DNA from: an uncultured Thermoleophilia bacterium
GTDB lineage: Bacteria > Actinomycetota > Thermoleophilia > UBA2241
Direction: 5' to 3'
DNA: 64,000 bases
Assembly: GCA_903927755.1 (NCBI GenBank)
Contig: CAIYOD010000028.1
Coordinates: 20,374-84,373 of the forward strand
The notes beneath the pieces are model-generated. The model did no database searches. It saw only the letters and a list, made by a program, of their open reading frames with translations, and was not told the origin of the DNA. Each line of letters begins with the position of its first letter. The first letter of the stretch is position 1. Shown here in pieces: positions 13,501-52,992 of the stretch. Both the position numbers and the translations under genes were made by a program.

Positions 13501-16330
13501 GCGTGTTGGGGCCGTAGCCCGGCAGGATGGTCGGCGCGCCGTTCGGGCTCAGGTCCGGGCCGCCGGTGTAGTAGTCGTAGGTCGGGACGCGGGCGGGGAA
13601 CGCTGCCGGGGCGTCGTTGTACAGGATCAGCGTCTTGCCGGCGAACTTGGAGAAATCGACGATCACATCGGCCCGCTCGGCGGGCGAGAGCAGCAGGGAG
13701 TGCAGGTCGACGTTGCCGACGTCGAAGCGCGTCGGGTCGGTGATCCAGGTGGTCTCCTGCTGGCCGTCGACCACGGCCGGTGTCGGCAAGAAGCCGCCCT
13801 CGGAGCCGATGTGGATCCAGTCGGGGCCGTTGGTCGAGGCGTTGTGCACCGGCGTCGGGAAGACCACCGGGTCGGTCTGCGCCGCCGCGAGCAACTGCGG
13901 ATCCAGCGCGACTTCGCTGTCCGTGCCCGTGGACGGGTCGGCGACATACCACTGGAAGTTGAAGAACCGGTCGTTGGCGGCGTTCAGCATGCGGAAGCGG
14001 TAGGTCTTGGGCTGAAGCGTGACCTCCGGGTACGCCACGCCGTTGACGACCGCCGTGTCGTTGAACTGCTCCATGCCGGCCGAGATGTTCGGCGTGCCGG
14101 GGATCTCATTCGGCTCGCAGAACGGGTCGGTCTGGTAGGTCCAGGTGGCCGGGTCGTCGACATTGCAGGTCGGGTCGTAGTACGGGTTGGGGATAGGTCC
14201 GTACGTGGTGGCTGCAGCCGGGGGCCAGAACCACGGGCCGTACATCCAGCGGCCGTAGGCGCTCATGCCGCCCGCGTCGCCGGGGTTCTGCGCCGGCATG
14301 TACACGTGGTGGTACCAGAAGTTGCCGTAGCCGCCCCAGCGAGCCTTGTCCCACGTTGGGTCCTGGCCATAGCTGGTGATGTTTCCCTGGTCATCGACCT
14401 GGTCGTAGAGCTGCGTGTCCTGCGGCACGAAAGTGCGGTCCTGGACGATGAGCGGGATGGTGTCCGCGGCATCCGGGATCGTGTTGCTGGCGATGAGCTC
14501 CTTCTCCTTGTCGTCGGAGACCAGGTAGCCCGCCGCCTCACCCGCATACACGTTCAGGCGCGTGATGCCCCACGCGTGGTCGTGGTAGAACATCAGCCGC
14601 GCGCTCTGCTGGTTGGTGTAGAAGAACGTCTGGATGCCGTCCCCGGGGTCGATGCCGACCGTCATGTCGGGCACGTTCTGCACGCTCACGCCCTGCGGCC
14701 AAGGGGTGTCCTCGTTGGCCGGCGTGATCCACTGGTGTGGCGTTCCGTCGCTGATCCACGGGGTGACGCCACCGTGCAGATGCAGCGTGGCGCGGTTGTC
14801 CTTGAAGCAGTCGGCGGACTTGGGCTCGTCGGTGCAGATGGGGTTGCGTACCCTGTCCAGCACGCTGCTCTCGTTGACCGGGTCAGGCAGCCCCATCGGG
14901 CCCATACCGGAGCCCATGAGCGTGCTGTCGACCGGCAGGAACAGGTCGCCCTCCTGCCCGTTCGGCAGCAGGTTGTGGAACACGATGCGCACCGGCTTGT
15001 CCTTGGTGGCCCCGATGGTCGGCCCGAGCCACTGCGGCTTGGTCACCGCGAGCACCGGATCGCCGCCCGCGTCGAGGATCGGGACGCTGGTCCCGTCGAG
15101 CTTCTCGGTGACCAGCGGATAGTGCTGGCTGATGGCGGCGTTGGCCGCCGTCTCCAGCTGCACGTAGCCGCGCACCAGCGTCGCCGGCAGGTCGCTGTTG
15201 AACTTGGTCCGGTACTGGACCAGCGCGATCTCGTACTCGTCGGACTTGACGGGATCGCCGTTGCCGTCGGGGTAGGTCTTCTCGTCCGGGACGCCAAGGG
15301 GGATGAACTTCGCGTCGGGGCTGGTAGTCCAGTCGGGGCAGCTGCCGGCGACCGCGGGGTTGCAGAGGCCCGGCAACTGGTCCTGGAACTTCTTGATGCC
15401 GCCGGCGGTGACGTAGCCGGCGCCGGGAGCCGTGAGGGTGATGCCGGTGACGGCGCCGTTCTCCACGACGGCCGTACCGGCGGCGCCGCTGCCGTTGCCG
15501 ACGGCGTCGGCGAAGGTCACCGTCGGCGCCGAGGTGTAGCCGGCGCCGAAGGTGTCGAGCGTCACGCTGGAGACCTCCATCGTGCAGGTCGCCGAAGCAC
15601 CGGCGCCGCCGTTGATGATGGGGTCGTAGAGCGTGCCGTCACGGATCACGACGCTCGGCGCCGTGAGGTAGCCCGATCCAGGGTTGTCGAGGATGATCGC
15701 CGTGACGGCGCCGTTGCCGTCGATGTCCACGTGAGCCGTGGCCTTGGTGCCTGTGGAGTCGTCCGGCTCGTCGAAGTCCACGGTGGGGAGGGTGTAGCCG
15801 GTGCCGGCGTTCCGCAGTTGGAGGTCCTTGACGCTGCCGTAGGCCGTCGCTTTGGCTTGCGTGGTCGCGCCGCCGCCGGACATGGTGACCGTCGGGGACT
15901 TGTACCCGGCGCCGCCGGCAGTGACGTTGACCGCGACCACAGCCCCACTATTGGTGACCGTCGCCGTGGCGGTGGCTCCCGTGCCGAGGCCGGTGATGCT
16001 GACCGTGGGACTGGTGTAGCCGCTGCCGGGGTCGGTGATGGTGATGCCGGTGACGACGCCGTTTCCACCCACCGTGGCCGTCGCCGTCGCACCCGTGCCG
16101 GTTCCGCCGTTGTCCGTGATCGTGACGGTGGCGTCCGGTAGTGTCAATGGGCTCAGCACCCAGTTGGGCCAGGGGCCGAAGTAGTGCGGCACGCCCGGGA
16201 TGTTGGCCGGAGCCGCAGCCTCGCCCTGAGTCATCTTGACCATGAAGAGTGCGGTGAGCAACGCCACCGCGATGAAGACCAGTACGCTGGCCTTGGCCAG
16301 TGACATGTTGCGCACGACCCTCGCAGCCAT
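10532..16330 (-). CDS. Giant membrane-anchored multicopper oxidase with N-terminal Gly/Thr repeats and C-terminal FN3, B-repeat-like and beta-sandwich modules
   Basis: ORF 10532..16453 trimmed to ATG 16330, preceded by GGGGAAGGGG. Signal anchor MAARVVRNMSLAKASVLVFIAVALLTALFMV. All four MCO copper motifs are present: HLHGG, FYHDHAW, HPIHFHLYD, WHCHILSHEEMDMM. Ends TAG-TGA. Confidence 0.9.
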   Translation of the reverse strand: MAARVVRNMSLAKASVLVFIAVALLTALFMVKMTQGEAAAPANIPGVPHYFGPWPNWVLSPLTLPDATVTITDNGGTGTGATATATVGGNGVVTGITITDPGSGYTSPTVSITGLGTGATATATVTNSGAVVAVNVTAGGAGYKSPTVTMSGGGATTQAKATAYGSVKDLQLRNAGTGYTLPTVDFDEPDDSTGTKATAHVDIDGNGAVTAIILDNPGSGYLTAPSVVIRDGTLYDPIINGGAGASATCTMEVSSVTLDTFGAGYTSAPTVTFADAVGNGSGAAGTAVVENGAVTGITLTAPGAGYVTAGGIKKFQDQLPGLCNPAVAGSCPDWTTSPDAKFIPLGVPDEKTYPDGNGDPVKSDEYEIALVQYRTKFNSDLPATLVRGYVQLETAANAAISQHYPLVTEKLDGTSVPILDAGGDPVLAVTKPQWLGPTIGATKDKPVRIVFHNLLPNGQEGDLFLPVDSTLMGSGMGPMGLPDPVNESSVLDRVRNPICTDEPKSADCFKDNRATLHLHGGVTPWISDGTPHQWITPANEDTPWPQGVSVQNVPDMTVGIDPGDGIQTFFYTNQQSARLMFYHDHAWGITRLNVYAGEAAGYLVSDDKEKELIASNTIPDAADTIPLIVQDRTFVPQDTQLYDQVDDQGNITSYGQDPTWDKARWGGYGNFWYHHVYMPAQNPGDAGGMSAYGRWMYGPWFWPPAAATTYGPIPNPYYDPTCNVDDPATWTYQTDPFCEPNEIPGTPNISAGMEQFNDTAVVNGVAYPEVTLQPKTYRFRMLNAANDRFFNFQWYVADPSTGTDSEVALDPQLLAAAQTDPVVFPTPVHNASTNGPDWIHIGSEGGFLPTPAVVDGQQETTWITDPTRFDVGNVDLHSLLLSPAERADVIVDFSKFAGKTLILYNDAPAAFPARVPTYDYYTGGPDLSPNGAPTILPGYGPNTRTIMRVKIAAAAPAAAFDLNKLNTAFAHKTDGSGVFESSQPPIIVGQAAYNKALGTGFAANSNCNPVPNTANPTFQICDGFVRVNDTMTFGFNTLEKPDLKTTLSLQPKAIHDEMNATTFDEFGRMQANLGLEAQPPTPGVQNGTFYPYVNPATEMLNGTNLPKHDVTWDADGNPVSDVKITPITSATDGTQIWRITHNGVDTHPIHFHLYDVQMLNRVTWDNIVIAPEPGELGWKETIRVAPLEDTIVALRPIIPELPFEVPNAIRNLNPMDPTGSTKLFNSVDAQGVPTAPIVNQLVNYGWEYVWHCHILSHEEMDMMRPQTLALPPVAPSNLSASLAGGGAMQTATLTWDDNSITETAFVGQRSDDRGGTWTTVGTMPSPLDQPNTHRAGLTMIDPTPFDPATTTVYYRMVAQNTVGYVADVKYPQMTVASTSNRVVVGPQFTITAPAGADGGITPSGSVAVGRGGSETFTFTPDLHYRIREVLVDNVADPVAAAAGSYTFADVQEDHTIEVSFTRSEVTITSTAGPGGSIAPKGKQTVRVNGTQNYIIEANNHYHILDVKVDGVSRTDVVDPRTYTYTFTDLVADHTIEATFERDVYTITSSAGANGTITPLGPQSVVFEDSLTFTIAADTGYHIREVLVDGVADAGALTAGSYTFTNVSTDHTISATFEANPTIAVTSPNGGEDWVVGTTHNVRWNSAPASVGFYRVWAYSPSTTPNWFEITSPDGVAANGASSYSLAWTVNVPAATDWKVRVSYYDASGTASTSDLSDATFTVIDNSPRVTSPNGGESWIVGAFHNMTWSMPAGLTTGYVRGWATRPGTDSAMIEITPPGGVAVTGATSYSVPWWTVAVPAASDYRILLQYYSDAGALVSQDTSNGTFAVRVKPSVGKPSAPSKIKKNRQFQVTGSIVPGKGVGPAVKIQVYKRNNKGTYVLSKTYKASVTDTRYSKNFKLGKKGKYKFKATTTATEQFVSSTSSYSRALSVK

Positions 16331-16574
16331 TTGAACCCCTTCCCCTGAGCCTTGAACCCCGACGTATCTTGGTCTCGGCTGACCTGTTCTGTCGCGATCA
16401 CCGGCGCGGGCACGCAGACGAGCGCCCTCCCAGGACGAATCCGGTCTAATCATGACCGAATTGGTCCGATGCTGAACACCGATGGAAGGCCTGACATCAC
16501 CTAGCCGAATGGCATAGGGGCCTTTGGCGCCGGCCGGTCAGGAGAGGAGTAAGGCCGCGACTCACGCTCGGGTG

Positions 16575-19084: not shown

Positions 19085-22000
19085 ATGGTAGCGTTTTGTG
19101 CCCGTCCATCAACGATCGAGGCGTTGACGCGGACGACCGGGCTGTCGGGGGAGGACGAGCTGGAGATCCAGAGACCGGCGAGGCTGGCGGCGGCTGTGAC
19201 CGCGCTGCTCGCGACGGCCGTTCTGGCCGCCGGACTGGCCGCCTGCGGCGGCGCGGATGACGACGGCGCGCCGCAGGCGGGCGTCGCCCCGCGCGGCGCC
19301 TCCGGCGTGGACGCCGGCGTCACCAACGGCGCGGTCACCTACAACCCTCGCGACCTCGTGGCGCTGATGGCCGACGACCCCACGCGGGGGGAGCGCTTCA
19401 GCGCCGCGACCAGGGCCGTCCAGAAGTCCGCCGGTCAGCCGGCCCCCCCGGCGCCGCGCCTGGACCCCGGCGCCACCCCCGACTACTTCGGCGGCGTCCC
19501 CAACTGGGCGCTCAGCCCTCAGCTGCGCAAGTTCGTGGACGAGCTGCCCGGCGTCGGGGCCGGCGCCTCCAACGGCCTCGGCCAGTACATCCCGGTGGCA
19601 ACGCCCGACACGGTCACCTACCCCGGCTCCGACTACTACGAGATAGCGGTGCGCGAGTACGCAGAGCAGTTGCACAGCGACCTCCCCGCGACCAGGCTGC
19701 GCGGGTACGTGCAGCTCAACATCGGTACGGATTCGAGTGGTCGCACCACGGTCGGCCCCGCGCCGATCCACTACCTCGGCCCACTCATCCGCGCCCGCCG
19801 CGGCCGGCCTGTTCGCATCAAGTTCGTCAACCAACTGCCCCCCGGGAAGGCGGGCGACCTGTTCCTGCCCGTGGACACGACGACCAGAGGCGCCGGCGCG
19901 GGCCCGCGGGGCGGCGGCGACCTGTACCCACAGAACCGCGCGTCCCTCCACCTGCACGGGGGGCTCACGCCCTGGATCAGCGGTGGCACGCAGTACCAGT
20001 GGATCACGCCGGCCGGCGAGCGGAGCCCCTACCGGTCAGGCCCGAGCCTGGTCAATGTTCCCGACATGTGGTTCGACGAGCAGGGTCGACCGGTGAGCGA
20101 AGGAGCACCCGGGGCCACCAACGACCCCGGCCCGGGCACCACGACGCTCTACTTCCCCAACGACCAGAGCGCCCGCTTCCTCTACCTGCACGACGACACC
20201 TTCGGCCTGACGCGCCTGAGCGTGTACGCGGGTGAGTCGTCGCCCTACTTCGTCGGCGACGCCGTGGACGATGAGCTCGTCGCCGGCAACACCGGCGAGC
20301 CCGCCTCCAGCCGCGCCATCAAAGCTCCCGTGGAGCCCGGCACCGTTCCGGCCGCCGAGCTGCCGCTCATCATCGAGGACAAGACCTTCGTCCCCGCCGC
20401 CGAGGAGCTCCGCGTCCAGGACCCCACGTGGGACATTGCGCGCTGGGGAGGCCTCGGCGCCCTCTGGTATCCGCACGTGTACATGCCCAACCAGGACGCG
20501 GCGGACGCGGTCAACGCCATGGGACGGTGGGACTATCTGCCCTGGTACTGGCGGGGCTACGCAGAGACGGAGAACGGCCCCGTGGCCAACCCGCTCTTCG
20601 GCACCGTGGCGTCCCAGCCCGAGCAGAACCCGGGGACGCCGAGCCCCTCCGTGGTGCCCAGCGCGTTCCTCGACACGATGCTCGTCAACGGGACCGCCTA
20701 CCCCTACGCCAGGGTGGAGCGCAAGGCCTACCGGCTGCGCATCCTCAACGCCTGCGGCGACCGCCAGCTGAACCTCCAGCTGTACTACGCGCGCTCCGAC
20801 AGCTTCGCCGAGACCGGTCCGGGAGGAAGGCCCGAGCTCCAGACCGATTCGGGCGACGTCGCCATGCTGCCGTCCATGTCCCCCGTCGGGGGCGGCTGGC
20901 CCGCGCGCTGGCCGACGGACGCGCGCGCGGGCGGCGTGCCGGACCCGCGCGCCATCGGACCGGACATGATCCAGATCGGCAACGACGGCGGCCTGCTGCC
21001 CCAGAGCGCCGAGCTCAAGAGCACGCCGGTCGGGTTGGAGTACCTGGCGCCCAGCGCCCGGGACCAGGCGATGGGCGAGTTCACCTCGATCATCGCGATC
21101 AACGGCCGGGCGCTCTACCTCGCGCCCGGCGAGCGCGCCGATGTGATCGTCGACTTCTCGCAGGTCCCGGCCGGTTCCAAGCTCATCCTGTACAACGACG
21201 CCCCGGCGCCCGCCCCCAACGGGGACAGCCGCGTGGACTACTACACCGATGACGTGGACCAGACCGCCATCGGCGGCGCGCCCATCACCGTCGCGGGCTA
21301 CGGACCCAACACGCGCACCGTCCTTCAGTTCCAGGTCGATGGACCAGCGGCGGCGCCGTTCGACCTCGAGCGGCTGCGCCGCGCGCTCCCGGCTGCCTAC
21401 GCGGCCGCGCAGGACCCCGTGCTGGTCCCGTCAGTCGAGTACGACGCGGTGTACGGGACCTCGGCCGAGGAGGACGACCTGGGCGCCGATACCCCGGAGG
21501 CGGCGCCGTCCAGTGCGGCGCCGGAAGCCATGCAGGGTGGCGGCATGGACGAAAGCATGGCGCAAGGCGAAGCGTCGACCGTCCCGCAGAAGGAGTCCGG
21601 CACGCTCACCTTCACGCCTCTGGGCCGGGCCTACCGGCTGACGCTGCCCGTGCAGGGCAAGATGGTGAGCGACCTGTTCGACCCGACCTACGGCCGCAGG
21701 ACCGCCACACTTGGCGTCGACGCTCCCCTCTCTGCGAGCGGCGTGAGGACGGCCGTGCCCTACTCCGCCATCGACCCCGCCACCGAGTACCTGGCCGTGG
21801 ACGAGGAGGCGACCGCGCCACAGCTGGGCGACGCCACTCAGCTGTGGCGCATCACCCATGACGGCACGGAGTCGCACAGCATCTCCTTCGGCGGCTTCGA
21901 CGTGCAGGTGGTGGAGCGCGCGCGGCGCAGCGGCGCAGCGCGCGCGCCCGACCCCGGCGAGCTCGGCTGGAAGGACACGCTGCGCGTCGACCCGCTCGAG

Positions 22001-22537
22001 TCGGTGCTCATCGCGGTGCGGCCGGTCCTGACGAACGTGCCCTTCAAGCTGCCGGCCAGCCAGCGCGACCTCGACGTGACACGCGAGCCCGGCGCCAAGG
22101 GCGGGTTCACGGAGCTGGACCCGGTCACCGCGGCGCCGTTGCGCCGTGAGGTCGTCAATGCACCGGCCGAGCTGAGCTTCGAGGCGTACTGGAGCATCCA
22201 CCTCATCGGTGGCGAGGAGAGCCACACAGCCCGGCCGCTCGTGCTCCAAGGGACGACGGAGGCGCCGGACGGGCTGACGGCGACGGGAGAGGGTACCAGC
22301 GTCAAACTGGCGTGGACGACGCCTCTGTTCCCGCCGCCCGTCATCGGCTACGTGGTGGAACGGGCGGCCGACGAAGGCTTCGCCGCGGACGTGACGACCT
22401 TCGCGACTCCGGCCGACGCCTCCACGTACACCGACACGACCGCGGAGGGCGGACGCACCTACTTCTACCGCGTCCGCACCGAGTCGGCCGCAGGCTGGTC
22501 GCCGTGGTCCGCGGCCGCCGAGGCGAGCCTGCCCTGA
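19085..22537 (+). CDS. Multicopper-oxidase-like lipoprotein with degenerate copper sites and C-terminal FN3 domain
   Basis: Colinear with the catalytic core of 10532..16330 (PDYFGGVPNWALSP, HLHGGLTPWISGGTQYQWITP). Lipobox ALLATAVLAAGLAA-C. Copper motifs are altered: LHDD, HSISFG, WSIHLIGGEES. The listed ORF start 18242 is a shadow extension. The true start is uncertain: ATG 19085, TTG 19124, or CTG 19160 just after GGGGGAGGA. Confidence 0.8.
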   Translation: MVAFCARPSTIEALTRTTGLSGEDELEIQRPARLAAAVTALLATAVLAAGLAACGGADDDGAPQAGVAPRGASGVDAGVTNGAVTYNPRDLVALMADDPTRGERFSAATRAVQKSAGQPAPPAPRLDPGATPDYFGGVPNWALSPQLRKFVDELPGVGAGASNGLGQYIPVATPDTVTYPGSDYYEIAVREYAEQLHSDLPATRLRGYVQLNIGTDSSGRTTVGPAPIHYLGPLIRARRGRPVRIKFVNQLPPGKAGDLFLPVDTTTRGAGAGPRGGGDLYPQNRASLHLHGGLTPWISGGTQYQWITPAGERSPYRSGPSLVNVPDMWFDEQGRPVSEGAPGATNDPGPGTTTLYFPNDQSARFLYLHDDTFGLTRLSVYAGESSPYFVGDAVDDELVAGNTGEPASSRAIKAPVEPGTVPAAELPLIIEDKTFVPAAEELRVQDPTWDIARWGGLGALWYPHVYMPNQDAADAVNAMGRWDYLPWYWRGYAETENGPVANPLFGTVASQPEQNPGTPSPSVVPSAFLDTMLVNGTAYPYARVERKAYRLRILNACGDRQLNLQLYYARSDSFAETGPGGRPELQTDSGDVAMLPSMSPVGGGWPARWPTDARAGGVPDPRAIGPDMIQIGNDGGLLPQSAELKSTPVGLEYLAPSARDQAMGEFTSIIAINGRALYLAPGERADVIVDFSQVPAGSKLILYNDAPAPAPNGDSRVDYYTDDVDQTAIGGAPITVAGYGPNTRTVLQFQVDGPAAAPFDLERLRRALPAAYAAAQDPVLVPSVEYDAVYGTSAEEDDLGADTPEAAPSSAAPEAMQGGGMDESMAQGEASTVPQKESGTLTFTPLGRAYRLTLPVQGKMVSDLFDPTYGRRTATLGVDAPLSASGVRTAVPYSAIDPATEYLAVDEEATAPQLGDATQLWRITHDGTESHSISFGGFDVQVVERARRSGAARAPDPGELGWKDTLRVDPLESVLIAVRPVLTNVPFKLPASQRDLDVTREPGAKGGFTELDPVTAAPLRREVVNAPAELSFEAYWSIHLIGGEESHTARPLVLQGTTEAPDGLTATGEGTSVKLAWTTPLFPPPVIGYVVERAADEGFAADVTTFATPADASTYTDTTAEGGRTYFYRVRTESAAGWSPWSAAAEASLP

Positions 22538-25807: not shown

Positions 25808-27298
25808 CTACTCCGCGTCGGGCCCGGCGCCCTGCAGCGCCGGCTCCCGCGAGGCCGCGAACTCGAGCACGACCACGGTGCGGCCCGGACGCGTGGTGAG
25901 CACGACGCGCGTGCACAGCTGCAGCATGATGGTGAACCCCATGCCCAAGCTGGCGGCCGTCGAGAAGCCGGGGACCAGCGTGGCGCGGGGCAGCGTCCTG
26001 AAGTCGATCCCCGGGCCCTCGTCGCTGATCGCGATCTGCAGGCTGTCCTCCCGCACGAACGCCTGGTACGAGCCTCCGCCGGCGTGCTTGATCGCGTTGT
26101 CGAGTGCCTCGCCCGCGGTGCTCAGCAGGTCGGTGTGGCGGATGCGCCCCGGGAAGCAGCCCTCGGCGGCGCGGACCGCCGCGCGGCGGATCGTGGCGAG
26201 CTGCGCCGGCGCGCCGAAGACGGCCGGCGGCGCGAGCGGCGACCCAAGCTCGTCCGCCAGTTGCTCGTCGGTGAGGAGGATGAGCTTGCCGCCGGTCACC
26301 GCGTCCAGCACGTCGACGTACGCCAGCCGGATCCCCTCTTCCTGCCGGCGCAGCGCCCGCTCGGCCTCGCGCAGGTCGGTGACGTCGGTCGCCGACACCA
26401 CCCAGAGGTCGTCGGCGGCCGGGTACGCCGAGAGCAGTTCGTAGTCCCCCTGCGTCCGCAGGTACACCTCGCAGCGAGCCGGGCGACCCGCCGCAATGGC
26501 GCCGGAGACCACGTCGAAGTAGGCCTGCAGCCGCTCGTCGCTGCCGTCGAACTCGCTGAGGCGCCACCCCACCAGTCGTTCGCTGTGGACCTTGGTCCGC
26601 CGCGCCTGGACGGGGTTGATATCGGCGATGACGAGGTCCTCGACCTCGCCGCCGGAGCTTCGTTCCACACGGAAGACGACGAGGCCCTCGGCGGCGTTGT
26701 CGAAGAGACGCCTGTACCGCTGTTCGCTCTCCAGCAGCAGCGCGTGCTTCTGCTCGTGCTGCAACGCGCTCAGCCCGAGCTCTCCGAGCATGCCGACGAA
26801 GTCGGAGAGGAACCCGATCGTCTTCTGCAGGCGAGCCTGCGTGATCACCGGGACCCGATCGAGCGCCTGCAGATACGCGTCCACGTCGAACCCGAGACGC
26901 CGCGCCCGCTCGGCGAACACCTGCCGGTCCACATCGTCGTCCTCGAAGAAGAACTGCCCGGTGTAGACGTTGGCGACGTGCTCGCCGGCGACGACCAGCG
27001 GGAAGGCGACGTCCCAGAGGCCGTTGCTGCAGCGATACGCGTAGTGCTCGCTCCCGTCCAGACCCTGGACGAGGCGCTGATTGATCAGCAGGTCGCTCTC
27101 GAGGCACCCCTGCAGCGTGTCGGGATGCTCACGATGAAAGCGGGTGCAGATGTCCTGCCAGCCCGTGGCGATCAGGACGTTGCCAGAGAGATCGAGCAGG
27201 GCGAGGGTGACATCAAAGGCCTGGGAGAGACTGTCGCAGAGTCGCTGGACGCGGTCCAGATCGATGAGCTTGGTCAACTCGTACCCGCTCGGCCCCAT
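25808..27298 (-). CDS. PocR-PAS sensory protein with C-terminal GHKL ATPase-like domain (no HisKA H-box seen)
   Basis: ORF 25808..27418 trimmed to ATG 27298. PocR-like region: LDLSGNVLIATGWQDICTRFHREHPDTLQGCLESD...YRCSNGLWDVAFPLVV...VYTGQFFFEDDD. PAS: SEQRYRRLFDNAAEGLVVF. C-terminus GEALDNAIKHAGGG...ISDEGPGI...GMGFTIM resembles anti-sigma-kinase-type ATPases. Ends in TAG. Confidence 0.75.
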   Translation of the reverse strand: MGPSGYELTKLIDLDRVQRLCDSLSQAFDVTLALLDLSGNVLIATGWQDICTRFHREHPDTLQGCLESDLLINQRLVQGLDGSEHYAYRCSNGLWDVAFPLVVAGEHVANVYTGQFFFEDDDVDRQVFAERARRLGFDVDAYLQALDRVPVITQARLQKTIGFLSDFVGMLGELGLSALQHEQKHALLLESEQRYRRLFDNAAEGLVVFRVERSSGGEVEDLVIADINPVQARRTKVHSERLVGWRLSEFDGSDERLQAYFDVVSGAIAAGRPARCEVYLRTQGDYELLSAYPAADDLWVVSATDVTDLREAERALRRQEEGIRLAYVDVLDAVTGGKLILLTDEQLADELGSPLAPPAVFGAPAQLATIRRAAVRAAEGCFPGRIRHTDLLSTAGEALDNAIKHAGGGSYQAFVREDSLQIAISDEGPGIDFRTLPRATLVPGFSTAASLGMGFTIMLQLCTRVVLTTRPGRTVVVLEFAASREPALQGAGPDAE

Positions 27299-27436
27299 CG
27301 GGCGTTCGCCTCCACTTGCGCCGAATCGGCGCACCCCTCGCGGCGCCCCCGCCGCGCGGAACAGTCCTCCCTCTTGGTTACCCGCCAGGCGCGGGCCCCG
27401 AACGCGGCCGGCCCGCACGAGACGCTCAGCCTTCGT

Positions 27437-28864
27437 CTAGCTGCCCGACTGCGCCGTCACCCGGCCCGAATCCACCGCCTCGCGCAGGGCGTCGTAGTCG
27501 CTCTGGTTCTGCTCCGCGTACGCATCCGCGAAGTCGGCGACGGCGCGGTCGAAGATGTCGCCGACGCCCAGGTAGGCGGCAATCGCGATGCGGTCGCCCG
27601 AACGCGCGTGCGCGCGAGCCAGCACCCAGGAGCACATCATCGCGTACGTGTGCCACGCGCCCTCGGTCATCGCCCCGACGTTGAACGACCCCTTGCCGTC
27701 CCAGAGCTGGCGCACGTAGAAGTCGTAGGGTCTGCCGTCGAACCCGGTCACGCTGTACCAGCCGAGCAGGATGTCGCCGACCGCCTGCATCAGCCGCTGG
27801 CCCTCGACCACGCGCCGCCCGGAGTTGCGGAACCGGCTGCGTCCGACGAAGCGCTCCAGGACGGAGGCCTGCGCCTGCTTGGCCTGAAGGAACAGCGGGT
27901 CGCCCTCGTCGCGGCCGAAGAACAGCAGGACCCAGGCGCGGGTGCCGACGCTGCCGACCCCGACGACCTTGCGCGCCATGTCCCGGTAGCGGTAGAGGTC
28001 ATACGCCGCTCGCCGGTCTTTCGGCAGCGTCTCCCGGTAGTTGCGGAGAGCTTCCTCCACGGCATGCGTGAAGCGCGCCCGCTCGTCGCCCGCGAGCAGC
28101 TCTCGGGCGGGCACCAGCAGCGGCGGGTCGCTGCGGAGCCGCGTCTTCCCCTCCACCTCGGCGGTGAGGCGGGAGAGCGCGCGGAGGTCGTGCTTCATCT
28201 CCGCGCGTGACATGTCCTTGGCCATCCGCTTAGCGTCCTTGCCTCCAAGCGACGTGAGGTGGTTCTGGATGAGGTCGGCGTCGAGCCGCGTGTACCAGAG
28301 GTCGATGGCGCGCTTCTCGGCCATCTCCAGCATCGCCTCGCGATAGGCGCGTACGCAGTGCATGACGATCGACCGCCGCGTGGACGCGGCGTAGCCGTGG
28401 TCGCGCGCCGCGATCTCGAAGCTGACCGCGAGGCGCTTGACGTCCCACTCCCACGGCCCGGGCAGCGTCTCGTCGAAGTCGTTGATGTCGAAGACCAGCC
28501 GCCGCTCCGGCGACTGGTACAGGCCGAAGTTCATGAGGTGGCTGTCGCCGCACAGCTGGGCCGTGAGCCCGGAGTCGGGCGTCCCGGCCAGGTCCGTCGC
28601 CATGAGCAGCGCGCCGCCCCGGTAGAAGGTGCCCGGCGAGACGAGCATGCGCGCGTAGCGGAGGGGCACCAGGTCGAGGACGCGATCGGCCCCCTGCTCC
28701 TCGAGCAGGCCGACCGGATCTGGACGATCGGCGGGCGCCTCCCACCGCGCGTGCGCGGAGCGGGGCGCCTGTTTGCGCGCCGCCTTGCCGCGGGCGGCGC
28801 GCTCGGCAGGCGTGAGCTTCTTCGCCTGGGCGATCTCGGGCAGCAGTTCAACCACGGCCCTCAC
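27437..28864 (-). CDS. DUF2252 domain-containing protein
   Basis: 475-aa ORF. PVGLLEEQGADRVLDLVPLRYARMLVSPGTFYRGGALLMATDL...LCGDSHLMNFG...FDINDFDET...WEWDVKRLAVSFEIAAR matches my recollection of the DUF2252 family. Ends in TAG. Confidence 0.8.
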   Translation of the reverse strand: MRAVVELLPEIAQAKKLTPAERAARGKAARKQAPRSAHARWEAPADRPDPVGLLEEQGADRVLDLVPLRYARMLVSPGTFYRGGALLMATDLAGTPDSGLTAQLCGDSHLMNFGLYQSPERRLVFDINDFDETLPGPWEWDVKRLAVSFEIAARDHGYAASTRRSIVMHCVRAYREAMLEMAEKRAIDLWYTRLDADLIQNHLTSLGGKDAKRMAKDMSRAEMKHDLRALSRLTAEVEGKTRLRSDPPLLVPARELLAGDERARFTHAVEEALRNYRETLPKDRRAAYDLYRYRDMARKVVGVGSVGTRAWVLLFFGRDEGDPLFLQAKQAQASVLERFVGRSRFRNSGRRVVEGQRLMQAVGDILLGWYSVTGFDGRPYDFYVRQLWDGKGSFNVGAMTEGAWHTYAMMCSWVLARAHARSGDRIAIAAYLGVGDIFDRAVADFADAYAEQNQSDYDALREAVDSGRVTAQSGS

Positions 28865-29406: not shown

Positions 29407-29535
29407 CCTGCCGGGCACTCCGAAGACGGATAGCCGACGGCTCTACATTCTGGGTGGCCGGTTTTCTGCAGCCCCCAGATGGCTATCCATCGGCTATCCG
29501 GGAATAGAGTGCCCCGCGAGTGCCCACCAGAGCAG

Positions 29536-29644
29536 CGTGGTCTGCTCGAGCGCGGTCTGCTCGAGCGCGGTCTGCTCGAGCGCGGTCTGCTCGAGCGCGG
29601 TCTGCTCGAGCGTGGTCTGCTCGAGCGCGGTCTGCTCGAGCGCG
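29536..29644. repeat. 15-bp perfect tandem repeat, 7 copies plus a partial copy
   Basis: CG(T/C)GGTCTGCTCGAG x7 read directly. Copies 1 and 6 carry T. Each unit contains the palindrome GCTCGAGC. Confidence 0.95.
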
Positions 29645-29895
29645 ACCCTTACGTCGAGCCCACCCCAGCGTCCGCGCGCCCCCTGAAAGGCTCCGGCCGC
29701 ACGAAGGCGGGTCGATCGAGGCGGTTCCGTGGCGGACGCCGACCGCATGGCCTACAACGAGTGGGACTCGCCGGACGAGCGCATGCTGCGGGGGATTTAC
29801 GAGGCCTTCGGGGTGCACTGCTCCGAGCGCCGGCGCCACCCCATTGCGGGATGACGACCCGCGGCGGCGGGCCGAACACGCACGAGTCCAGTCGC

Positions 29896-30224: not shown

Positions 30225-31643
30225 TCAGCGGCCGGTCGCCGCAGCGGCGCGCTGGGGATCGGCCTGCGGCTCGATCGCCCGGAGCCTCCCCGCTATCTCC
30301 TCGAGATAGCGGCGATTGTCCGGGCGCCTCTCCCAGCGACGCACGAACCACCAGCACCACAGGTGGTCGTGCGCCACGCTCCAGCGTCGGCGAGCGAGCT
30401 GGTGGAGGAACCGCCGGAACGAGTAGAAGCGCTTGTACGCCCGCAGAAGCTCGCCCTGCAGCTCCGCCGGCGTCATCTTCAGTGGCGCGATCATCACGTG
30501 CTGGCCGTCGTAGAGCTCCCAGCGTCTGTCGACGATGCGGCCCGCCGCCTCCATCTCGTCCCACCACTCCGTGCCCGGCGCCGGCGTCAGGACGTTGAGC
30601 ATGACGGTGTCGATGTCGTGCCGAAGGGCGAAGTCCGCGGTGTCGCGGACGGTCTGGCGATCGTCGGTGTCGGCGCCGAGGACGAACATCCCGTGGGAGC
30701 GGATGCCGTACTCGTGCAGCGTGTCGACGGCGGAGACGATGTCGGCCACGGTCTGGGACTTGTGGAGAGCGTCGAGCGTGGCCTGGTCCACGGATTCCAA
30801 CCCCAGTCCGACGACCCTGCAGCCCGAGTCCCTCATGAGGCCCAGCAGCTCGGGATCCCGCACGACATCGGTGCGCACCTGTGACTGCCAGGGGATCACC
30901 ACGCCGCGCTCGATCATCAGGCGCAGCAGCGTCTTGAGGCGCTTCGCGTCCGCCGCGAAATTGTCGTCGTAGAAGAAGATGTGCTTTGGCCGTTTCTCCT
31001 CGATCTCGGCCACGACACTCTCAGCGCTGCGGTATCGGTACTTGCGCCCGAACATCGCCGTGACGGAGCAGAAGCTGCAGCCGAACGGACAGCCCCAGCT
31101 CGTCATGATGGGCGTGGACTGCATGCGCTCGTGGCCCACGATCAGCGTGAGGTCCGGCACCGGGAGCTCGTCGAGGTCCGGACAGGCGTCGCGGCGCTCG
31201 TTGTGCACGGCACGGCCGTCGCGCAGGAAGGAAAGGCCACGGATGGAGTCCAGCTCGAGGTCTCCGTATATGGCCTCCATGAGCTCGAAGATGAGACTGT
31301 CGCCCCCCTCGCCGCGGGCGACGTAGTCCACATGCCCGAGCGCCTCCTCGGCCATGAAGGTGACGTGGGCGCCGCCCATGACCACCGGCACGCCGAGACC
31401 GCGCAGCCGGTCGGCGATGGCGTAGCCCGCCGGCGCCGTGGAGGTGGTGGTCGACAGGCCCACGAGGTCCGCGCCCGCGACGTCGTCCCAGTCCACGGGC
31501 GCCATGTCGGTGCAGTAGATGCGCACGTCGTGGCCCGCGGCCTTGAGCGCCGCGCCGATCATCGGCAGACCCAGCCGCGGATAGCGCCACGGCGACATGA
31601 TGTGGACGCTGGGCGGCTCCGGCTCGATCAGGCGGATCTTCAT
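30225..31643 (-). CDS. B12-binding domain-containing radical SAM protein
   Basis: N-terminal cobalamin-binding-like Rossmann region (LGLPMIGAALKAAGHDVRIY...VGLSTTTS...VVMGGAHVTF). Radical SAM cluster motif CPFGCSFC (CxxxCxxC), followed by the TIM-barrel region. Confidence 0.9.
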   Translation of the reverse strand: MKIRLIEPEPPSVHIMSPWRYPRLGLPMIGAALKAAGHDVRIYCTDMAPVDWDDVAGADLVGLSTTTSTAPAGYAIADRLRGLGVPVVMGGAHVTFMAEEALGHVDYVARGEGGDSLIFELMEAIYGDLELDSIRGLSFLRDGRAVHNERRDACPDLDELPVPDLTLIVGHERMQSTPIMTSWGCPFGCSFCSVTAMFGRKYRYRSAESVVAEIEEKRPKHIFFYDDNFAADAKRLKTLLRLMIERGVVIPWQSQVRTDVVRDPELLGLMRDSGCRVVGLGLESVDQATLDALHKSQTVADIVSAVDTLHEYGIRSHGMFVLGADTDDRQTVRDTADFALRHDIDTVMLNVLTPAPGTEWWDEMEAAGRIVDRRWELYDGQHVMIAPLKMTPAELQGELLRAYKRFYSFRRFLHQLARRRWSVAHDHLWCWWFVRRWERRPDNRRYLEEIAGRLRAIEPQADPQRAAAATGR

Positions 31644-47373: not shown

Positions 47374-47601
47374 TGCTGCGTCCTTGCTTCTGGCTCCGTC
47401 TGGCTTGCTGGGACGACGGCCGGTGGATCGTCCGCCGGCAGGCCGGGCCGTCAATGATAAGTGCCCGCAGCCGCGAGCACGACCGACGCCCGGCGCCGGG
47501 GCAGAGGGCGGCCGAACTGCTACTGTCTTCCTGCGTAGGGTCGGAGTCGATCACGAGCCTCGACGACCATGAGAAAGCGAGCTGGAGGGAGGTGCGCCGG
47601 C

Positions 47602-48483
47602 ATGGCGCAGAGCGGCGGTCCACAACTGCGGCTCGAGTTCTGGCGTGGGTTCAGGCAGTCCATGACGGAGCAGAGCGCCATCACCTGCGGGCGCGCGTCG
47701 TCCGAGACCTGGATGCACCACGACGCGCGGCTCAACTGCGGCAGGCTCTTCTCGATGATCCGCACGAGGGACGGAGAGATCGGATCGCAGTTCGCCCTGG
47801 ACGACCTCACCGCGCGGACGGTCTTCACTCTCCTCGGCGATCATCGGCAGGAAGTCGACGAGGCGTTCGGGCGGCCGCTCGCCTGGCGCGTGGTGAGCGA
47901 CAGAATGCATGAGATCGACCTGCGCCGGCCGGCCGACCTCGAACGCCGCGACGACTGGCCGGAGCTCTTCGCGTGGCTGGCGGACAACCTCGACGCCTTC
48001 ACCCGCGCGCTCGTCCCCTTCGTCGGTCGTTCGATCCCCACGCCCCACCAGGGCGACTGGGACGAGACGTCGTTCTTTGCCGCACTCGGCGAGCACAACC
48101 CCGGCGCCGCCGGCCCGGCCCGTGAGCTCCTCGAGTGGGGCCGGGCATCGCTGCCCCACCTGCGCTGGGGCCACGGCAAGCAGTCCGGCTCCTTCACACC
48201 CAGCGTCCTCAGGTCCGGCCTCGAGCACAGCGTGCTCAGCGTGTGGACCGACGGCCTCTTCTGCATCCGCTTCGGAGCGCTCGCCAAGACCCCGGCGTTC
48301 GCACCGGAGTCGATGCGCACCGAGCTGCTGGATCGACTCAACGAAGTCCCGCGCTTCGCCCTTCCGGCAGGAGTCCTCGACAAGTACCCCGGCCTGCCCC
48401 TGGGTCTCCTGGGCGACCCGGCGACCATGCGGGCGTTCCTCACCGCCCTGGACTGGTGCGTCGCGGTGATGAAGCAGCGCTGA
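47602..48483 (+). CDS. DUF4268-like protein with extra C-terminal domain
   Basis: ORF trimmed to ATG 47602. The N-terminal half (LRLEFWRGFRQSM...W...FALDDLTARTVFTLLGDHRQEVDEAFGRPLAWR...) fits my recollection of DUF4268. The C-terminal half was not recognised. Confidence 0.5.
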   Translation: MAQSGGPQLRLEFWRGFRQSMTEQSAITCGRASSETWMHHDARLNCGRLFSMIRTRDGEIGSQFALDDLTARTVFTLLGDHRQEVDEAFGRPLAWRVVSDRMHEIDLRRPADLERRDDWPELFAWLADNLDAFTRALVPFVGRSIPTPHQGDWDETSFFAALGEHNPGAAGPARELLEWGRASLPHLRWGHGKQSGSFTPSVLRSGLEHSVLSVWTDGLFCIRFGALAKTPAFAPESMRTELLDRLNEVPRFALPAGVLDKYPGLPLGLLGDPATMRAFLTALDWCVAVMKQR

Positions 48484-48548
48484 CCCCGGCGTCGCCGCAC
48501 GCGCGGGGCCGCGAGACGCGCCGCCCGGCTCAGCTGTGCCGTCGATAC

Positions 48549-48576
48549 TTGCGTCCTGAGCGGTTTTCTGCATAGT
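48549..48576 (+). promoter_or_regulatory. Candidate sigma-70-type promoter of the methyltransferase cluster
   Basis: TTGCGT (48549..48554), a 16-nt spacer, then CATAGT (48571..48576). It lies about 35 nt upstream of ATG 48612, which has a GGAGGTGG Shine-Dalgarno. Confidence 0.35.
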
Positions 48577-48611
48577 CGCCGCGCGACTCGTACAGCGACC
48601 GGAGGTGGACC

Positions 48612-50087
48612 ATGCGCGAAGCCGCGACGACCAACGACACCAGCCGAGCACCCGAGCAGAGCATCGGGAGCTACTTCACGCGGCTCACCGACGCGCAGTG
48701 CGAGCGGCTGCACGAGGCCACCCTGCAGGTCCTGGAGAGGACCGGGCTCATCATCGACGACCCGGAGGCTCTGGCGCTCCTCGCCGCCGCCGGCGCCGAC
48801 GTGGACGGCACGCGCGTGCGCATCGGCCCGAAGCTGGTGGAGCGCGCCCTCGCGTCCGCGCCGCGTGAGGTGACCCTCTACGACAGGAACGGCGAGCCGC
48901 GCCTCGTGCTCGCCGGCCGCCGGACCTACTACGGCACCGGCAGCGACTGCATGTACTGCTTCGACCACCGCACCGGCGAGCGGCGCCGCGCCGTGCTGCA
49001 GGACGTCGTCGAGGCGACCACCGTGACGGACGCCTGCGGGAACATCGATTTCGTGATGTCGCTGTTCACGCCGAGCGACGTGGACGCGCGCGTCGCCGAC
49101 CGCTACCAGATGGCGACGATGCTCGGCAACACCACCAAGCCCATCGTGTACATCACCATGGGCGACGAGACCGCCAATGCCGACGCCGTCGCCATGGCGG
49201 AGGCGGCGGTCGGCGGCGAGCGGCAGCTGCGCGAGCGGCCTTTCGTGGCCTGCTACAAGAACACACTGTTCCCGCTGGTGCACAACCGCGAGGCGGTGCG
49301 CACGCTGCTCGACCTCGCCGGCAAGGGGCTGCCCTGCATCTTCAGCCCCGTCTCCACGGCCGGCACCGTCGCCCCGATGACCGTCGCCGGCTCTACGGTG
49401 GTCGTCAACGCCGGGGTGCTGGCGGGCCTCGTCATGGCGCAGCTCAAACGCGAGGGCGCTCCGTACATCGCCATCGGCTGGGCCGGCGAGGCCATGGACA
49501 TGCGCACCATGGTCGACGTCTTCGCGTGGCCGGACCACCGCGGCGTCTACTCGTCGCTGCTGCACTGGTACGGGCTGCCGCTGTGGACGCTCGGCGGCGT
49601 GACCGACTCCAAGCTGCCCGACCAGCAGGCGGCGGCCGAGACGGCCCTCACCCTGATGGCCGACGCGGTCATCGGCGGGCACATCAACCACAACATCGGC
49701 TTCATCGAGTCGGCGTTCACCGGCTCGCTGACGCAGGTGGTGCTCGGCGACGACATCGCGGGCTGGATCAAGGCGTTCGTCGCGCCGGTGGACCTGAGCG
49801 ACGAGGCGCTGGGGCTCGACGTGATCGACGAGGTCGGGCCCGGCGGGCTGTTCCTGAAGCACAAGCACACGCGCCGGCACGCGCGCGACCGCTTCCAGCC
49901 CGCGGTCTTCGACCGCAGCACCTTCGAGGACTGGGGCAGGCGCGGCGGCAAGGACGCCACTGAGGTGGCCGCCGAACGCGTGGACGAGCTGCTGGCGACC
50001 CACCGGCCGGAGCCGCTGCCGGCGAGTGCCCAGACAGCGGTCGACGACATCGTGGCGCGCGCCCTGGACCGCGCTCGCCGCGCGTGA
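48612..50087 (+). CDS. MttB-superfamily methyltransferase, non-pyrrolysine member (quaternary amine/other substrate)
   Basis: 491 aa, uninterrupted and colinear with the mttB at 51508..52992 (LHEATLQVLERTG..., ...LGGVTDSKLPDQQAAAETALTLM...). It has Val where the paralogue has TAG. Confidence 0.9.
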   Translation: MREAATTNDTSRAPEQSIGSYFTRLTDAQCERLHEATLQVLERTGLIIDDPEALALLAAAGADVDGTRVRIGPKLVERALASAPREVTLYDRNGEPRLVLAGRRTYYGTGSDCMYCFDHRTGERRRAVLQDVVEATTVTDACGNIDFVMSLFTPSDVDARVADRYQMATMLGNTTKPIVYITMGDETANADAVAMAEAAVGGERQLRERPFVACYKNTLFPLVHNREAVRTLLDLAGKGLPCIFSPVSTAGTVAPMTVAGSTVVVNAGVLAGLVMAQLKREGAPYIAIGWAGEAMDMRTMVDVFAWPDHRGVYSSLLHWYGLPLWTLGGVTDSKLPDQQAAAETALTLMADAVIGGHINHNIGFIESAFTGSLTQVVLGDDIAGWIKAFVAPVDLSDEALGLDVIDEVGPGGLFLKHKHTRRHARDRFQPAVFDRSTFEDWGRRGGKDATEVAAERVDELLATHRPEPLPASAQTAVDDIVARALDRARRA

Positions 50088-50101
50088 GAGGAGGAGGCGA
50101 C

Positions 50102-51496
50102 ATGACGACGGAAGAGCGGATCCCGACGCGGCTCGGAGACGGCTCCCTCCTCACCCTGACCCGGAGTCAGATGCAGGCGGACATCGAAGCCGGCGTCGAG
50201 GCGGCCGTGAAACGCGCCCACGTCCCGCCGCTGACGGCCGCGGAGGCGGACCACCTGCTCGACATCTGCGCCTCCCGCGCCAGGTTCAGCAGCGTCGACC
50301 TGGGGACGGAGGTTGTCCTCAGCATCGACGGCACCGGTGGCCAGCTCGTCGCCGGCCGCCAGGGCGACCTGCTGACGTTCGAGCAGTACCTGGGGGCCGA
50401 CATCGTCGAGCTCTACCACATGGACTACTCGTTCAAGGCAGTGAAGACGGTGCTGCCGTTCGAGCGTCAGAGTCTCAAGAACGCGCAGCAGGCGCTCACC
50501 GTGCCGGTGCAGTACGGCGCCATGCCGGACCTGGGGCGCTACTCCCGGCCGGACGGTCCTATCGCGAACTGGTCGGAACTGCTGCCTCTGGGGCGCATCG
50601 CCGAGGCGCGCGCGGCGCAGGAGGAGGCGGCGGAGATGGCCGCGCACGACATCACCTTCGTGGCCGAGGGCGTGTGGGAGGCGGGGGCCGACGGCATCGA
50701 CCTGGACACGTCGGGCGCGGCCGGCGACGCAGACCTGCTGGCCGCGCTCACGGCGACCCGGGAGATCCGCGGTCGCTGCCCCGACATGGGGATCGAGATG
50801 GGCATGGCGAGCGAGATGGTCCTCGGGATGCACGGCGAGCTGGAGTGGCAGGGCGCCCGGCTTGCCGGCCTCTGGCCGCACCAGCAGGTGAAGCTGGCCG
50901 CCGCGGCGGGCGCCACGGTGTTCGGGCCCGCCGTCAATGTGAACTCGACGAAGTCGCTGCCCTGGAACCTGGCGCGCACGCTGACGCTGTGCAAGCCGTG
51001 CTGCGAGGAGTCGCAGATCCCCGTGCACATGAACGTCGGGATGGGCGTGGGCGGCGTGCCGATGGCCGTCCGGGCGCCGGTCGACGCGGTCTCCCGCGCC
51101 GCGCGCGCCTGCGTCGACATCCTGAAGGTGGACGGGTTGTAGGTGGGCGCCGGCGATCCGCTCGGGATGAGCGCGACGCACGCCAACGCCGCGGGCATGG
51201 GCGGGATGCGAGCCGCCGGAGATCTGGTGGCTCGCCTGCAGATGACCCGGGGCATGAGGCTCCCCGAAGCGAAGCGCTACGTGGCCGACAAGCTGGGCGT
51301 CGGTCCGTCGGACCTCTCGGACGCTCCGACGATGCACGAGGTGAGGGGCGAGCTGGGGCTCGGGCGGATCTGCTACGGGGGCGCTGCCCTCTACCCCGAC
51401 CAGCCGAGCGCGATGGAGGCCAAGTTCCGCATCGCCGAGGTGCTCGGCATCCCCGTGAACTGCGTCGAGCGGTTCCGCACGCACGCGAGGATCTGA
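50102..51496 (+). CDS. mtbB: Dimethylamine:corrinoid methyltransferase MtbB with in-frame TAG (51140..51142) at the pyrrolysine position
   Basis: ORFs 50084..51142 and 51143..51496 are in the same frame, separated only by TAG. ATG 50102 follows GAGGAGGAGG. The joined 464-codon product is colinear with archaeal MtbB. ...MGMGVGGVPM...[46 protein letters not shown] matches the recalled Methanosarcina MtbB1 motif VDGI-Pyl-IGVGDPLGM...[12 protein letters not shown]. Confidence 0.9.
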
Positions 51497-51507
51497 GGGG
51501 AGCAGGG

Positions 51508-52992
51508 ATGGACGACGTACGTGACCAGCGCCTGGCCGGCGTCCCTCAGGTCCGCCTCGGCGTGCTGAGTGAGCGGGACCTGGACGACCTCCACGAGGCG
51601 ACCCTGCGGGTGCTGGAGCAGACCGGGGTCTGGGTCGAGGACGCCGAGGCCCTCGACGTGTACGCCGACGCCGGGTGCGCGGTGGACCGGGACGCGCGGT
51701 CCGTCCGCATCCCGCCAGGCGTCGTGGATGCGGCGATCGCCTCGGCCCCGGCGGAGTGGGTCCAGTGCGGCCGCGACCCCGCTCGCGACGTGCTCCTCGG
51801 CGGCGACCGGGTGACCTTCACCAACTTCTGCGAGGGCCTCTTCATGATCGACGCTCGCAGCGGCGCGCGCCGGCCGGCGACCACGCAGGACGTGGAGGAC
51901 ACGGCGCGCCTCTCCGACCGCCTCGGGATGATCGACTCCTACATGGTCGCCGTCACCGCGTCGGACGCGCCCACGGCCACCGCCTCCCTGCACGGACTGC
52001 GCGCGGCCTTCCGCGGCACGAGCAAGCACATCGTCGCCGGCGCGGCCAACGCGTTCGAGAGCGAGGCGAGCATCGACATGGCCGCGGCCATCGTCGGCGG
52101 GCGAGACCGTCTACGCGAGCGCCCGATCATCGAGTTCGGCGGCTGCCCCGTCAGCCCGCTGCGGCTGCCCCGCGAGCTGACCGAGGTGGCCATCACGGCG
52201 GCGCGCAACGGCATCCCGTTCGGCGCCTGCTCCATGGTCATGGCGGGCGCGTCGGCCCCGGTCACCCTGGCCGGCGCGCTGGTCACCCACAACGTGGAGG
52301 TCCTGGCGACCCTCGTCCTCGTCCAGTCGGTGGAACGAGGGTCGCCGTTCCGCGCCTCGAGCTCGAGCACCGGCATGGACCTGCGGGTCGGTACGTGCCC
52401 CGTCGGGTCGCCCGAGTGCGCCATGCTCAACGTCGGCGTCGCGCAGCTGGCGCGGCGGTACAACCTGCCCAGCCTCGTCGCCGGGTTGTAGGCGGACTCC
52501 AAGACGTGTGACGCCCAGGCCGGTCACGAGAAGACGCTCACCGGAGTGATGACTGCGTTGGCAGGCGCCAACCAGATCTACGGAGCGGGCATGGTCGAGT
52601 CGGGCGTCACGTTCGATCTGGGTCAGCTGGTCGTGGACGACGAGATCGCGCGCATGATCCGCCACATCCTGGAGGGGATCCCCGTCAACGAGGATACGCT
52701 GCTGCTCGGGGACATCCAGGACGTCGGCTGGTCCGGGGAGTTCATGTCCCGCAAGAGCACGCTGCACGGCATGCGAGCCATGTCGGCCCCGCGGATCTTC
52801 GACCGCGGGGTGTACGAGGTGTGGGACGCCGCGGGGAGAGTGGACCTGGCGCGGCGCGCGCGAGACAAAGCGTTGGCGCTGCTCGACGAGGACGGCGGCT
52901 GCGACCTGCCGCCCGACGTCTCCGCCGAGCTCGACGCCATCGTCGCGCGCGCGGACCGCGCCGTCACACCGCCGGCTGCACCAGATGGATGA
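51508..52992 (+). CDS. mttB: Trimethylamine:corrinoid methyltransferase MttB with in-frame TAG (52489..52491) at the pyrrolysine position
   Basis: ATG 51508 follows GAGGGGAG. The frame of the tail of ORF 50026..52491 continues after TAG into ORF 52546..52992. The junction reads ...[49 protein letters not shown], total 494 codons. This matches the G-L-Pyl-x-D-S-K context recalled for Pyl-type MttB. Confidence 0.9.

Follow-up and report, generated by a model that had tools for sequence, protein, structure and literature searches.

The DNA analysed here is a 64-kb stretch of contig CAIYOD010000028.1 (hereafter the window). Positions 48612-52992 of its forward strand are filled by three co-oriented, tightly spaced genes, A, B and C. 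We consider it very probable that these genes make up a functional operon of three corrinoid-dependent methyltransferases, and that the required pyl and corrinoid genes are located elsewhere in the genome of a Thermoleophilia bacterium. Genes B and C each contain a single in-frame TAG at the site of pyrrolysine (Pyl), the catalytic residue of the methylamine methyltransferases MtbB and MttB. Taken alone, the cluster is an ordinary Pyl-dependent methylamine methyltransferase operon in a little-studied group. Its local peculiarity, judged by comparison with close relatives, is an A-B(-C) cassette that is devoid of a corrinoid gene and lies in different genomic contexts. Pyl use itself appears to be widespread and paralogue-rich in high-GC soil Thermoleophilia. 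This bears on who consumes tri- and dimethylamine, which are methane precursors, in soils and peat, where bacteria of the class Thermoleophilia are abundant.

Three methyltransferase genes and two in-frame UAG codons

Gene A (48612-50087, forward strand, 491 aa) matched the Pfam family MTTB with 283 bits. On the NCBIfam profile TIGR02369 it scored 362 bits, under the cutoff of 525, and the residue at its Pyl site is Val (GGV-TDSK). Its MTTB fold family, its sense codon and its sub-cutoff score place it in the non-Pyl MttB superfamily. The best relative of solved structure was the glycine betaine methyltransferase 2qne/9yce (200 bits), and no close characterised homologue was found. Orthologues of gene A lie directly upstream of mtbB in three related loci, L001, L054 and L002. 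Its product probably demethylates a quaternary amine or some other methylated amine.

Gene B (50102-51496, forward strand) scored 421 bits on TIGR02368, above the equivalog cutoff of 369. It also matched the Pfam family Dimeth_Pyl (PF09505) with 547 bits, covering profile positions 4-462 of 463. It has a single in-frame UAG (codon 347, 51140-51142) followed by conserved coding sequence, and the match to the Rfam element PYLIS_2 (57.8 bits, gathering cutoff 36) starts exactly at this TAG. By these matches gene B is mtbB, encoding a dimethylamine:corrinoid methyltransferase that is predicted to be read through one UAG. No solved structure of the MtbB family was found for comparison.

Gene C (51508-52992, forward strand) scored 583 bits on TIGR02369, above the cutoff of 525, and its alignment with the solved MttB 7xcl/7xcm (310 bits) covers the whole length. 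Its TAG (codon 328, 52489-52491; X in LVAGLXADSK) aligned with the Pyl position of 7xcm. The Rfam element PYLIS_3 (71.9 bits, gathering cutoff 38) starts exactly there. On this evidence gene C is mttB, and its product would be a trimethylamine:corrinoid methyltransferase, again read through one UAG.

Genes A and B are separated by 14 nt (GAGGAGGAGG) and genes B and C by 11 nt (GGGGAGCAGGG). A purine-rich Shine-Dalgarno stretch lies ahead of each gene, with GGAGGTG before the start of gene A. The identities, order and coordinates of the genes, the gaps of 11-14 nt and the Shine-Dalgarno sites had all been given in an earlier reading of the window made from the sequence alone (hereafter the sequence-only reading), and they proved exact when compared with the profile scores and the sequence. 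The two amber-containing genes that it had named were borne out by the PYLIS matches and by the alignment with 7xcm, which put both TAGs at canonical Pyl sites. The Val-containing and TAG-containing MttB proteins that it had pointed out side by side are those of genes A and C.

The TAG codons were also found in other metagenomes. Contigs of two of them were 100% and 99.85% identical to the window over 50041-52019, mtbB TAG included. A third, shorter contig had both genes split in the same way, into 346+117 aa (B) and 327+147 aa (C). As the mtbB TAG was reproduced directly, and the mttB TAG through the same gene split, in independent assemblies, they are not assembly errors.

We estimated selection from close pairs and from a comparison of pN before and after the TAG only. 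The ratio pN/pS against distant paralogues is uninformative, because the synonymous sites are saturated, with a GC content at third codon positions (GC3) above 0.9. Between gene B and its counterpart in L001, dN/dS was 0.12 for the part ahead of the TAG and 0.07 for the part behind it. Compared with L054, the post-TAG value was 0.21. When the post-TAG part of mtbB was searched by tblastn in 76 related loci, 136 of the 144 segments had TAG at the Pyl site. The remaining eight were fragments starting out of register, and all in-register copies keep the TAG. In the 113 mtbB copies with an intact tail, the protein is as conserved after the TAG as before it (pN roughly equal). For mttB, 27 copies of Thermoleophilia carry TAG at the Pyl site. 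Such purifying selection on the post-TAG sequence implies that the TAGs of genes B and C are not real terminators and that translation continues past them.

The codon preceding the Pyl codon

Both TAGs of the window are preceded by TTG, in the context GGG TTG TAG G (51134-51143 and 52483-52492). We surveyed the codon at this -1 position across the Thermoleophilia loci L001-L076. Among the 122 mtbB copies, it was TTG in 81 cases, TAC in 37, CTG in two and TTA in two. Among the mttB copies, it was TTG in 25 of 27. Comparatively, TTG accounts for only 3.5% of the Leu codons in these Thermoleophilia genomes and genes. In an alignment of 94 mtbB copies, TTG made up 96% of the Leu codons in the -1 column, and at most 10% in every one of the 29 other Leu-rich columns. 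The Gly and Val codons neighbouring the -1 TTG vary freely. The -1 TTG is common to two unrelated enzyme families, mtbB and mttB.

According to a paper of 2025, no sequence cue is known for targeted Pyl insertion (PMC12626013). Our codon counts suggest that the -1 TTG may act as a context signal that decides between Pyl insertion and termination, and this bias may be new. If this is true, site-selective Pyl insertion would have its first conserved sequence cue in the -1 codon. It would also provide a handle on how Pyl is directed to the right sites in cells where UAG still serves as a stop. A wider proposal has three parts: that Thermoleophilia are a large and almost undescribed Pyl reservoir, that UUG or UAC on the 5′ side of UAG favours insertion, and that the cassette is one mobile module. 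We regard it as doubtful that all three hold together, and put it forward tentatively.

Pyl genes in Thermoleophilia and explanations of the cassette

The primary sigma factor encoded in the window was 73-79% identical to RpoD of metagenome-assembled genomes (MAGs) that NCBI names Thermoleophilia. By this identity, the host is placed as a Thermoleophilia (Actinomycetota) bacterium. A scan for MtbB, with one genome per GTDB species, revealed 75 loci, almost all of them in MAGs of Thermoleophilia or of unclassified Actinomycetota, whose sources were Danish soils, Stordalen Mire and the like. In total, 122-136 TAG-containing mtbB copies were present in 73-76 Thermoleophilia/Actinomycetota loci.

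Genes for decoding UAG as Pyl were also found in this class. In locus L032, from a Thermoleophilia MAG, pylSc (11665-12522; 314 bits on TIGR02367, cutoff 178) directly adjoins mtbB. It was the only pylSc in the 76 mtbB loci, in which ARAGORN called no tRNA-Pyl. Homologues of the L032 PylSc form more than 120 clusters at an identity of at least 70%, and NCBI already names some of them 'pyrrolysine--tRNA(Pyl) ligase large subunit [Thermoleophilia bacterium]'. Through these homologues we reached a complete bacterial-type pyl locus on the Thermoleophilia contigs L077 (10001-18200), L078 and L079. It begins with amidase-pylSc, continues with genes for a TIGR02370 corrinoid protein and a radical SAM protein and with pylSn, and closes with pylB-pylC-pylD-pylT(CUA). 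All pyl proteins scored above the NCBIfam cutoffs, and ARAGORN called the tRNA-Pyl(CUA), whose gene sequence is GGGGGGTCGATCGAAAGGATCAGCGTGGGCTCTAAACCCACGTAGGCGGGTGTGACTCCCGCACTCCCCGCCA. The amidase gene overlaps the start of pylSc both in L032 and in L077-L079. The Thermoleophilia PylSc is closest to the PylSc of Desulfitobacterium hafniense (3dsq/2zni, 323 bits). One contig with the pyl locus, 1,999,427 bp long, appears to carry also an RpoD 75% identical to that of the window, a pairing that we treat as tentative.

The exceptional host that the sequence-only reading had implied was not confirmed, because TAG-containing mtbB and mttB are abundant, and complete pyl loci are present, in Thermoleophilia. 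Whether such a lineage had already been documented, which that reading had left open, received a divided answer. Ellenbogen et al. (2023) reported that Actinobacteriota MAGs express Pyl-encoding mttB and mtbB (PMC10805028), and Guo et al. (2022) counted two Actinobacteria with PylRS (PMC9630628). The exact arrangement of the corrinoid-less cassette, however, was not found described in the searchable literature, where Pyl in Actinobacteria was mentioned in passing only and no dedicated study was found.

Several side observations were made on these loci. The mtbB family is strongly expanded, with up to four TAG-containing paralogues within 21 kb (e.g. L033 and L024) and several loci per MAG. The copies counted were at about 55-75% identity. 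This expansion suggests substrates beyond dimethylamine. A Thermoleophilia-like MtbB (66% identity) was found at locus L045 in a MAG labelled 'Deltaproteobacteria bacterium', and a protein from a MAG with the same label (P0316) is an RpoD 75% identical to that of the window. Both MAGs are probably mislabelled or misbinned Thermoleophilia, and such MAGs could inflate the counts of deltaproteobacterial Pyl users. A low-GC MtbB homologue of 468 aa (P0100, from a cluster of 101 members) is called as a full-length protein, with Gln where Pyl would stand (KVDGF-Q-VGVGDP). Either this MtbB truly uses a sense codon there, or the Gln stems from gene calling with TAG as Gln. In about 40 loci (L004-L073), mtbB has a tRNA-Thr(UGU) gene no more than a few kb away, in many cases some 100 nt downstream (e.g. 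L004, 11497-11572), which could reflect conserved synteny or an integration hotspot. We rejected the idea that this tRNA is a novel suppressor, as its sequence is that of a canonical tRNA-Thr(UGU).

For the physiological role of the operon we infer the following steps, supposing that this genome carries a Pyl system. Trimethylamine would lose a methyl group to MttB (gene C), and dimethylamine would next lose one to MtbB (gene B), each enzyme working via Pyl at its single UAG. Gene A, the Pyl-independent paralogue, would serve to demethylate a further quaternary or other methylated amine. The UAGs would be decoded by the split-type set of pylT, pylSn, pylSc and pylBCD encoded elsewhere in the genome. 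The methyl acceptor would be a corrinoid protein, likewise encoded elsewhere; related Thermoleophilia have a corrinoid gene inside the pyl locus. The methyl groups might then enter C1 metabolism. Pyl insertion would presumably be limited by regulated expression of the pyl genes.

Some observations weigh against a functional operon. As the sequence-only reading had noticed, the 64 kb hold no corrinoid, activase or pyl gene; we found no pyl gene, no carrier corrinoid protein, no activase and no methyltransferase acting from methylcorrinoid to tetrahydrofolate or coenzyme M. ARAGORN called tRNA-Ile alone in the window, and no pylT. Neither tblastn of the window with the Thermoleophilia PylSc, PylB, PylC, PylD and corrinoid protein nor blastn with the Thermoleophilia pylT gave a match. 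A six-frame scan of the window for the cobalamin-binding motif DxH[DE][IVLM]G returned nothing real. Pfam scans of essentially all window proteins revealed no MtbC/MttC-, RamA- or MtbA/MtaA-type protein and no pterin-binding methyltransferase. The canonical operon, in which an MtbC/MttC-type gene (B12-binding_2 plus B12-binding) adjoins the methyltransferase, was not seen in the window, where the sole B12-binding domain is that of a radical SAM enzyme (30225-31643, reverse strand). The Pyl-decoding gene set is absent from the 64-kb window, although it is complete and above cutoffs in the related L077-L079 and represented by PylSc in L032. In addition, TAG is the ordinary stop of 12 of the 43 window genes (28%), rpoD included, and with a stop of this frequency read-through would be costly unless it is regulated. 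Pyl insertion competes with termination in other Pyl-using bacteria too. Finally, genes A and C carry 1-nt indels in L001 (8500-12860), and in L054 (8500-15560) frameshifts affect genes A and B, and mttB is replaced by about 4 kb of other DNA.

The lack of pyl and corrinoid genes in the window, the use of TAG as a common stop, and the indels and the loss of gene C in close relatives could all be taken to mean that the operon is a relic: the Pyl machinery was lost or never acquired, genes B and C are truncated and inactive, and gene A alone works. We think this unlikely. The post-TAG segments keep open frames with low dN/dS, the sequence recurs identically or nearly so in three other metagenome contigs, and a relative with at least 90% identity has an intact A-B-C (491, 346+117 and 317+144 aa) on a JGI contig assembled from short reads. 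The Pyl system is, moreover, common in Thermoleophilia. Regarding the frameshifts, three copies of one pyl region (L077-L079), which come from two of these long-read metagenome assemblies, differ by many frameshifts, and long-read assemblies of this source show such noise in housekeeping genes too. The indels in L001 and L054 may therefore be assembly errors, which makes pseudogene calls from these MAGs unsafe, and pseudogenisation as a conclusion from them was downgraded. Far less probable still, and effectively refuted, is the explanation that the TAGs arose as errors of sequencing or assembly, or that near-cognate suppression reads them without Pyl. It conflicts with their reproduction in independent assemblies, with the constant position of the TAG codon in 136 mtbB and 27 mttB copies, with the existence of cognate pylT and pylS in Thermoleophilia, and with the established catalytic role of Pyl in both enzymes.

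A further explanation, compatible with a functional operon, is that A-B(-C) is a mobile or recently transferred module among Thermoleophilia. If so, this mobility would explain why the partner genes are not adjacent. The closest relatives, L001 and the Thermoleophilia MAG locus L054, share 91% DNA identity with the window across the DUF4268 gene, A and B, and L001 does so across C too. The window, L001, L054, L002 and the JGI contigs form a sub-clade in which the genes are ordered A-B(-C) and a corrinoid gene is lacking. The 91% identity to L001 spans 47578-52961 of the window and ends at the cassette borders, where the flanks are unrelated. The cassette lies behind genes for 2-oxoacid:ferredoxin oxidoreductase (OFOR) and DUF4268 in the window; behind ADH, DUF4143 and DUF4268 in L001; and behind AsnC and SBP_bac_5 in one JGI contig. 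Relatives with at least 90% MtbB identity were seen in at least four contexts, with gene C present or absent. Gene C is missing in L054, in L002 and in another JGI contig. In the more distant L002 (MtbB identity 73%), genes A and B are still paired but C is absent, and typical Thermoleophilia loci are ordered differently, corrinoid gene included. On the other hand, no integrase, transposase or terminal repeats were seen at the borders in Pfam and repeat scans. Downstream of the cassette, short stretches are common to L054 and the window, a sign of partial synteny. The sequence-only reading had proposed to compare the cluster with its flanks in GC; both GC and GC3 match those of the flanks and the rest of the window. 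Mobility seems to us possible, with the balance somewhat against it. The cassette also indicates that the methyltransferase genes need not be linked to the corrinoid and pyl genes on which they depend.

Neighbourhood of the cassette and comparison with known systems

The sequence-only reading had also described the flanks of the cassette, and Pfam agreed with it on the OFOR operon and the DUF4268 gene upstream and on the extracytoplasmic function (ECF) sigma factor downstream. The upstream flank consists of the alpha, beta and gamma subunits of OFOR, an ACT protein and the DUF4268-family gene (47569-48483, forward strand; Pfam DUF4268, 57 bits). In the downstream flank, two proteins lack an assignment and accompany the ECF sigma factor. 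The DUF4268 gene lies within the block of 91% DNA identity and has 79-80% amino acid identity in L001 and L054. It accompanies the cassette in these two close relatives but not in all; the JGI relative has SBP_bac_5 instead.

Between the DUF4268 gene and gene A, a block at about 48537-48587 (forward strand) with the pair TTGCGT...CATAGT is kept between the window and L001, amid long indels in the surrounding intergenic DNA. The block might be a promoter or an operator of the cassette. As to the plausible promoter of the sequence-only reading, a simple consensus sigma-70 scan around the cassette called no promoter, this block included, and the conserved pair is put forward as a candidate only.

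Other features of the window were noted in passing. A PocR-sensor histidine-kinase-like protein is encoded at 25808-27418 (reverse strand). What seemed to be a second in-frame TAG, between a DUF2252 gene (27437-28864) and this PocR gene, was rejected, as these are merely two adjacent genes in the same frame. Two very large secreted proteins of multicopper-oxidase-like or fibronectin type, of 1973 and about 1100-1400 aa, are encoded at 10532-16453 (reverse strand) and 19202-22537 (forward strand), and they flank an ABC/FtsX pair. The interval at 28.9-30.2 kb is without annotation except for a short open reading frame (29494-29748, reverse strand) that encodes a tandem peptide repeat, ALEQT/TLEQT, in about eight copies.

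Among known systems, the loci of Methanosarcina (mttBC and mtbBC), Desulfitobacterium hafniense and Acetohalobium arabaticum share with the window the families TIGR02368 and TIGR02369, the PYLIS matches, and a single UAG per gene at the canonical catalytic position. The Pyl system seen in Thermoleophilia is of the bacterial split type, as in D. hafniense. Unlike those loci, the window genes are not adjoined by a corrinoid protein, a permease, RamA or a pyl cassette, and mtmB was not seen. Their host also differs, being a member of Actinomycetota with roughly 70% GC in which TAG is still a frequent ordinary stop.

Within Thermoleophilia, the typical locus L005 (MAG MFD00709.bin.2.166) shares with the window the trio of mtbB(TAG), mttB(TAG) and a non-Pyl MttB paralogue. 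Its order is different: SBP, mtbB, mttB, corrinoid protein, non-Pyl MttB and EamA. Of the 76 loci, about 25 have a corrinoid gene in the ±10 kb around mtbB, usually 2-3 kb off. MtbB proteins of the L005 type and of the window type share only 60-67% identity.

Gene A can be compared with MtgB, the glycine betaine methyltransferase (DSY3156 / 2qne), whose fold family gene A matches along its entire length. As in MtgB, the Pyl site of gene A is occupied by a sense codon, and the D-S/A-K motif that follows is retained. However, the match amounts to only 200 bits, the residue at the site is Val, and gene A is translationally coupled to mtbB instead of to a corrinoid gene.

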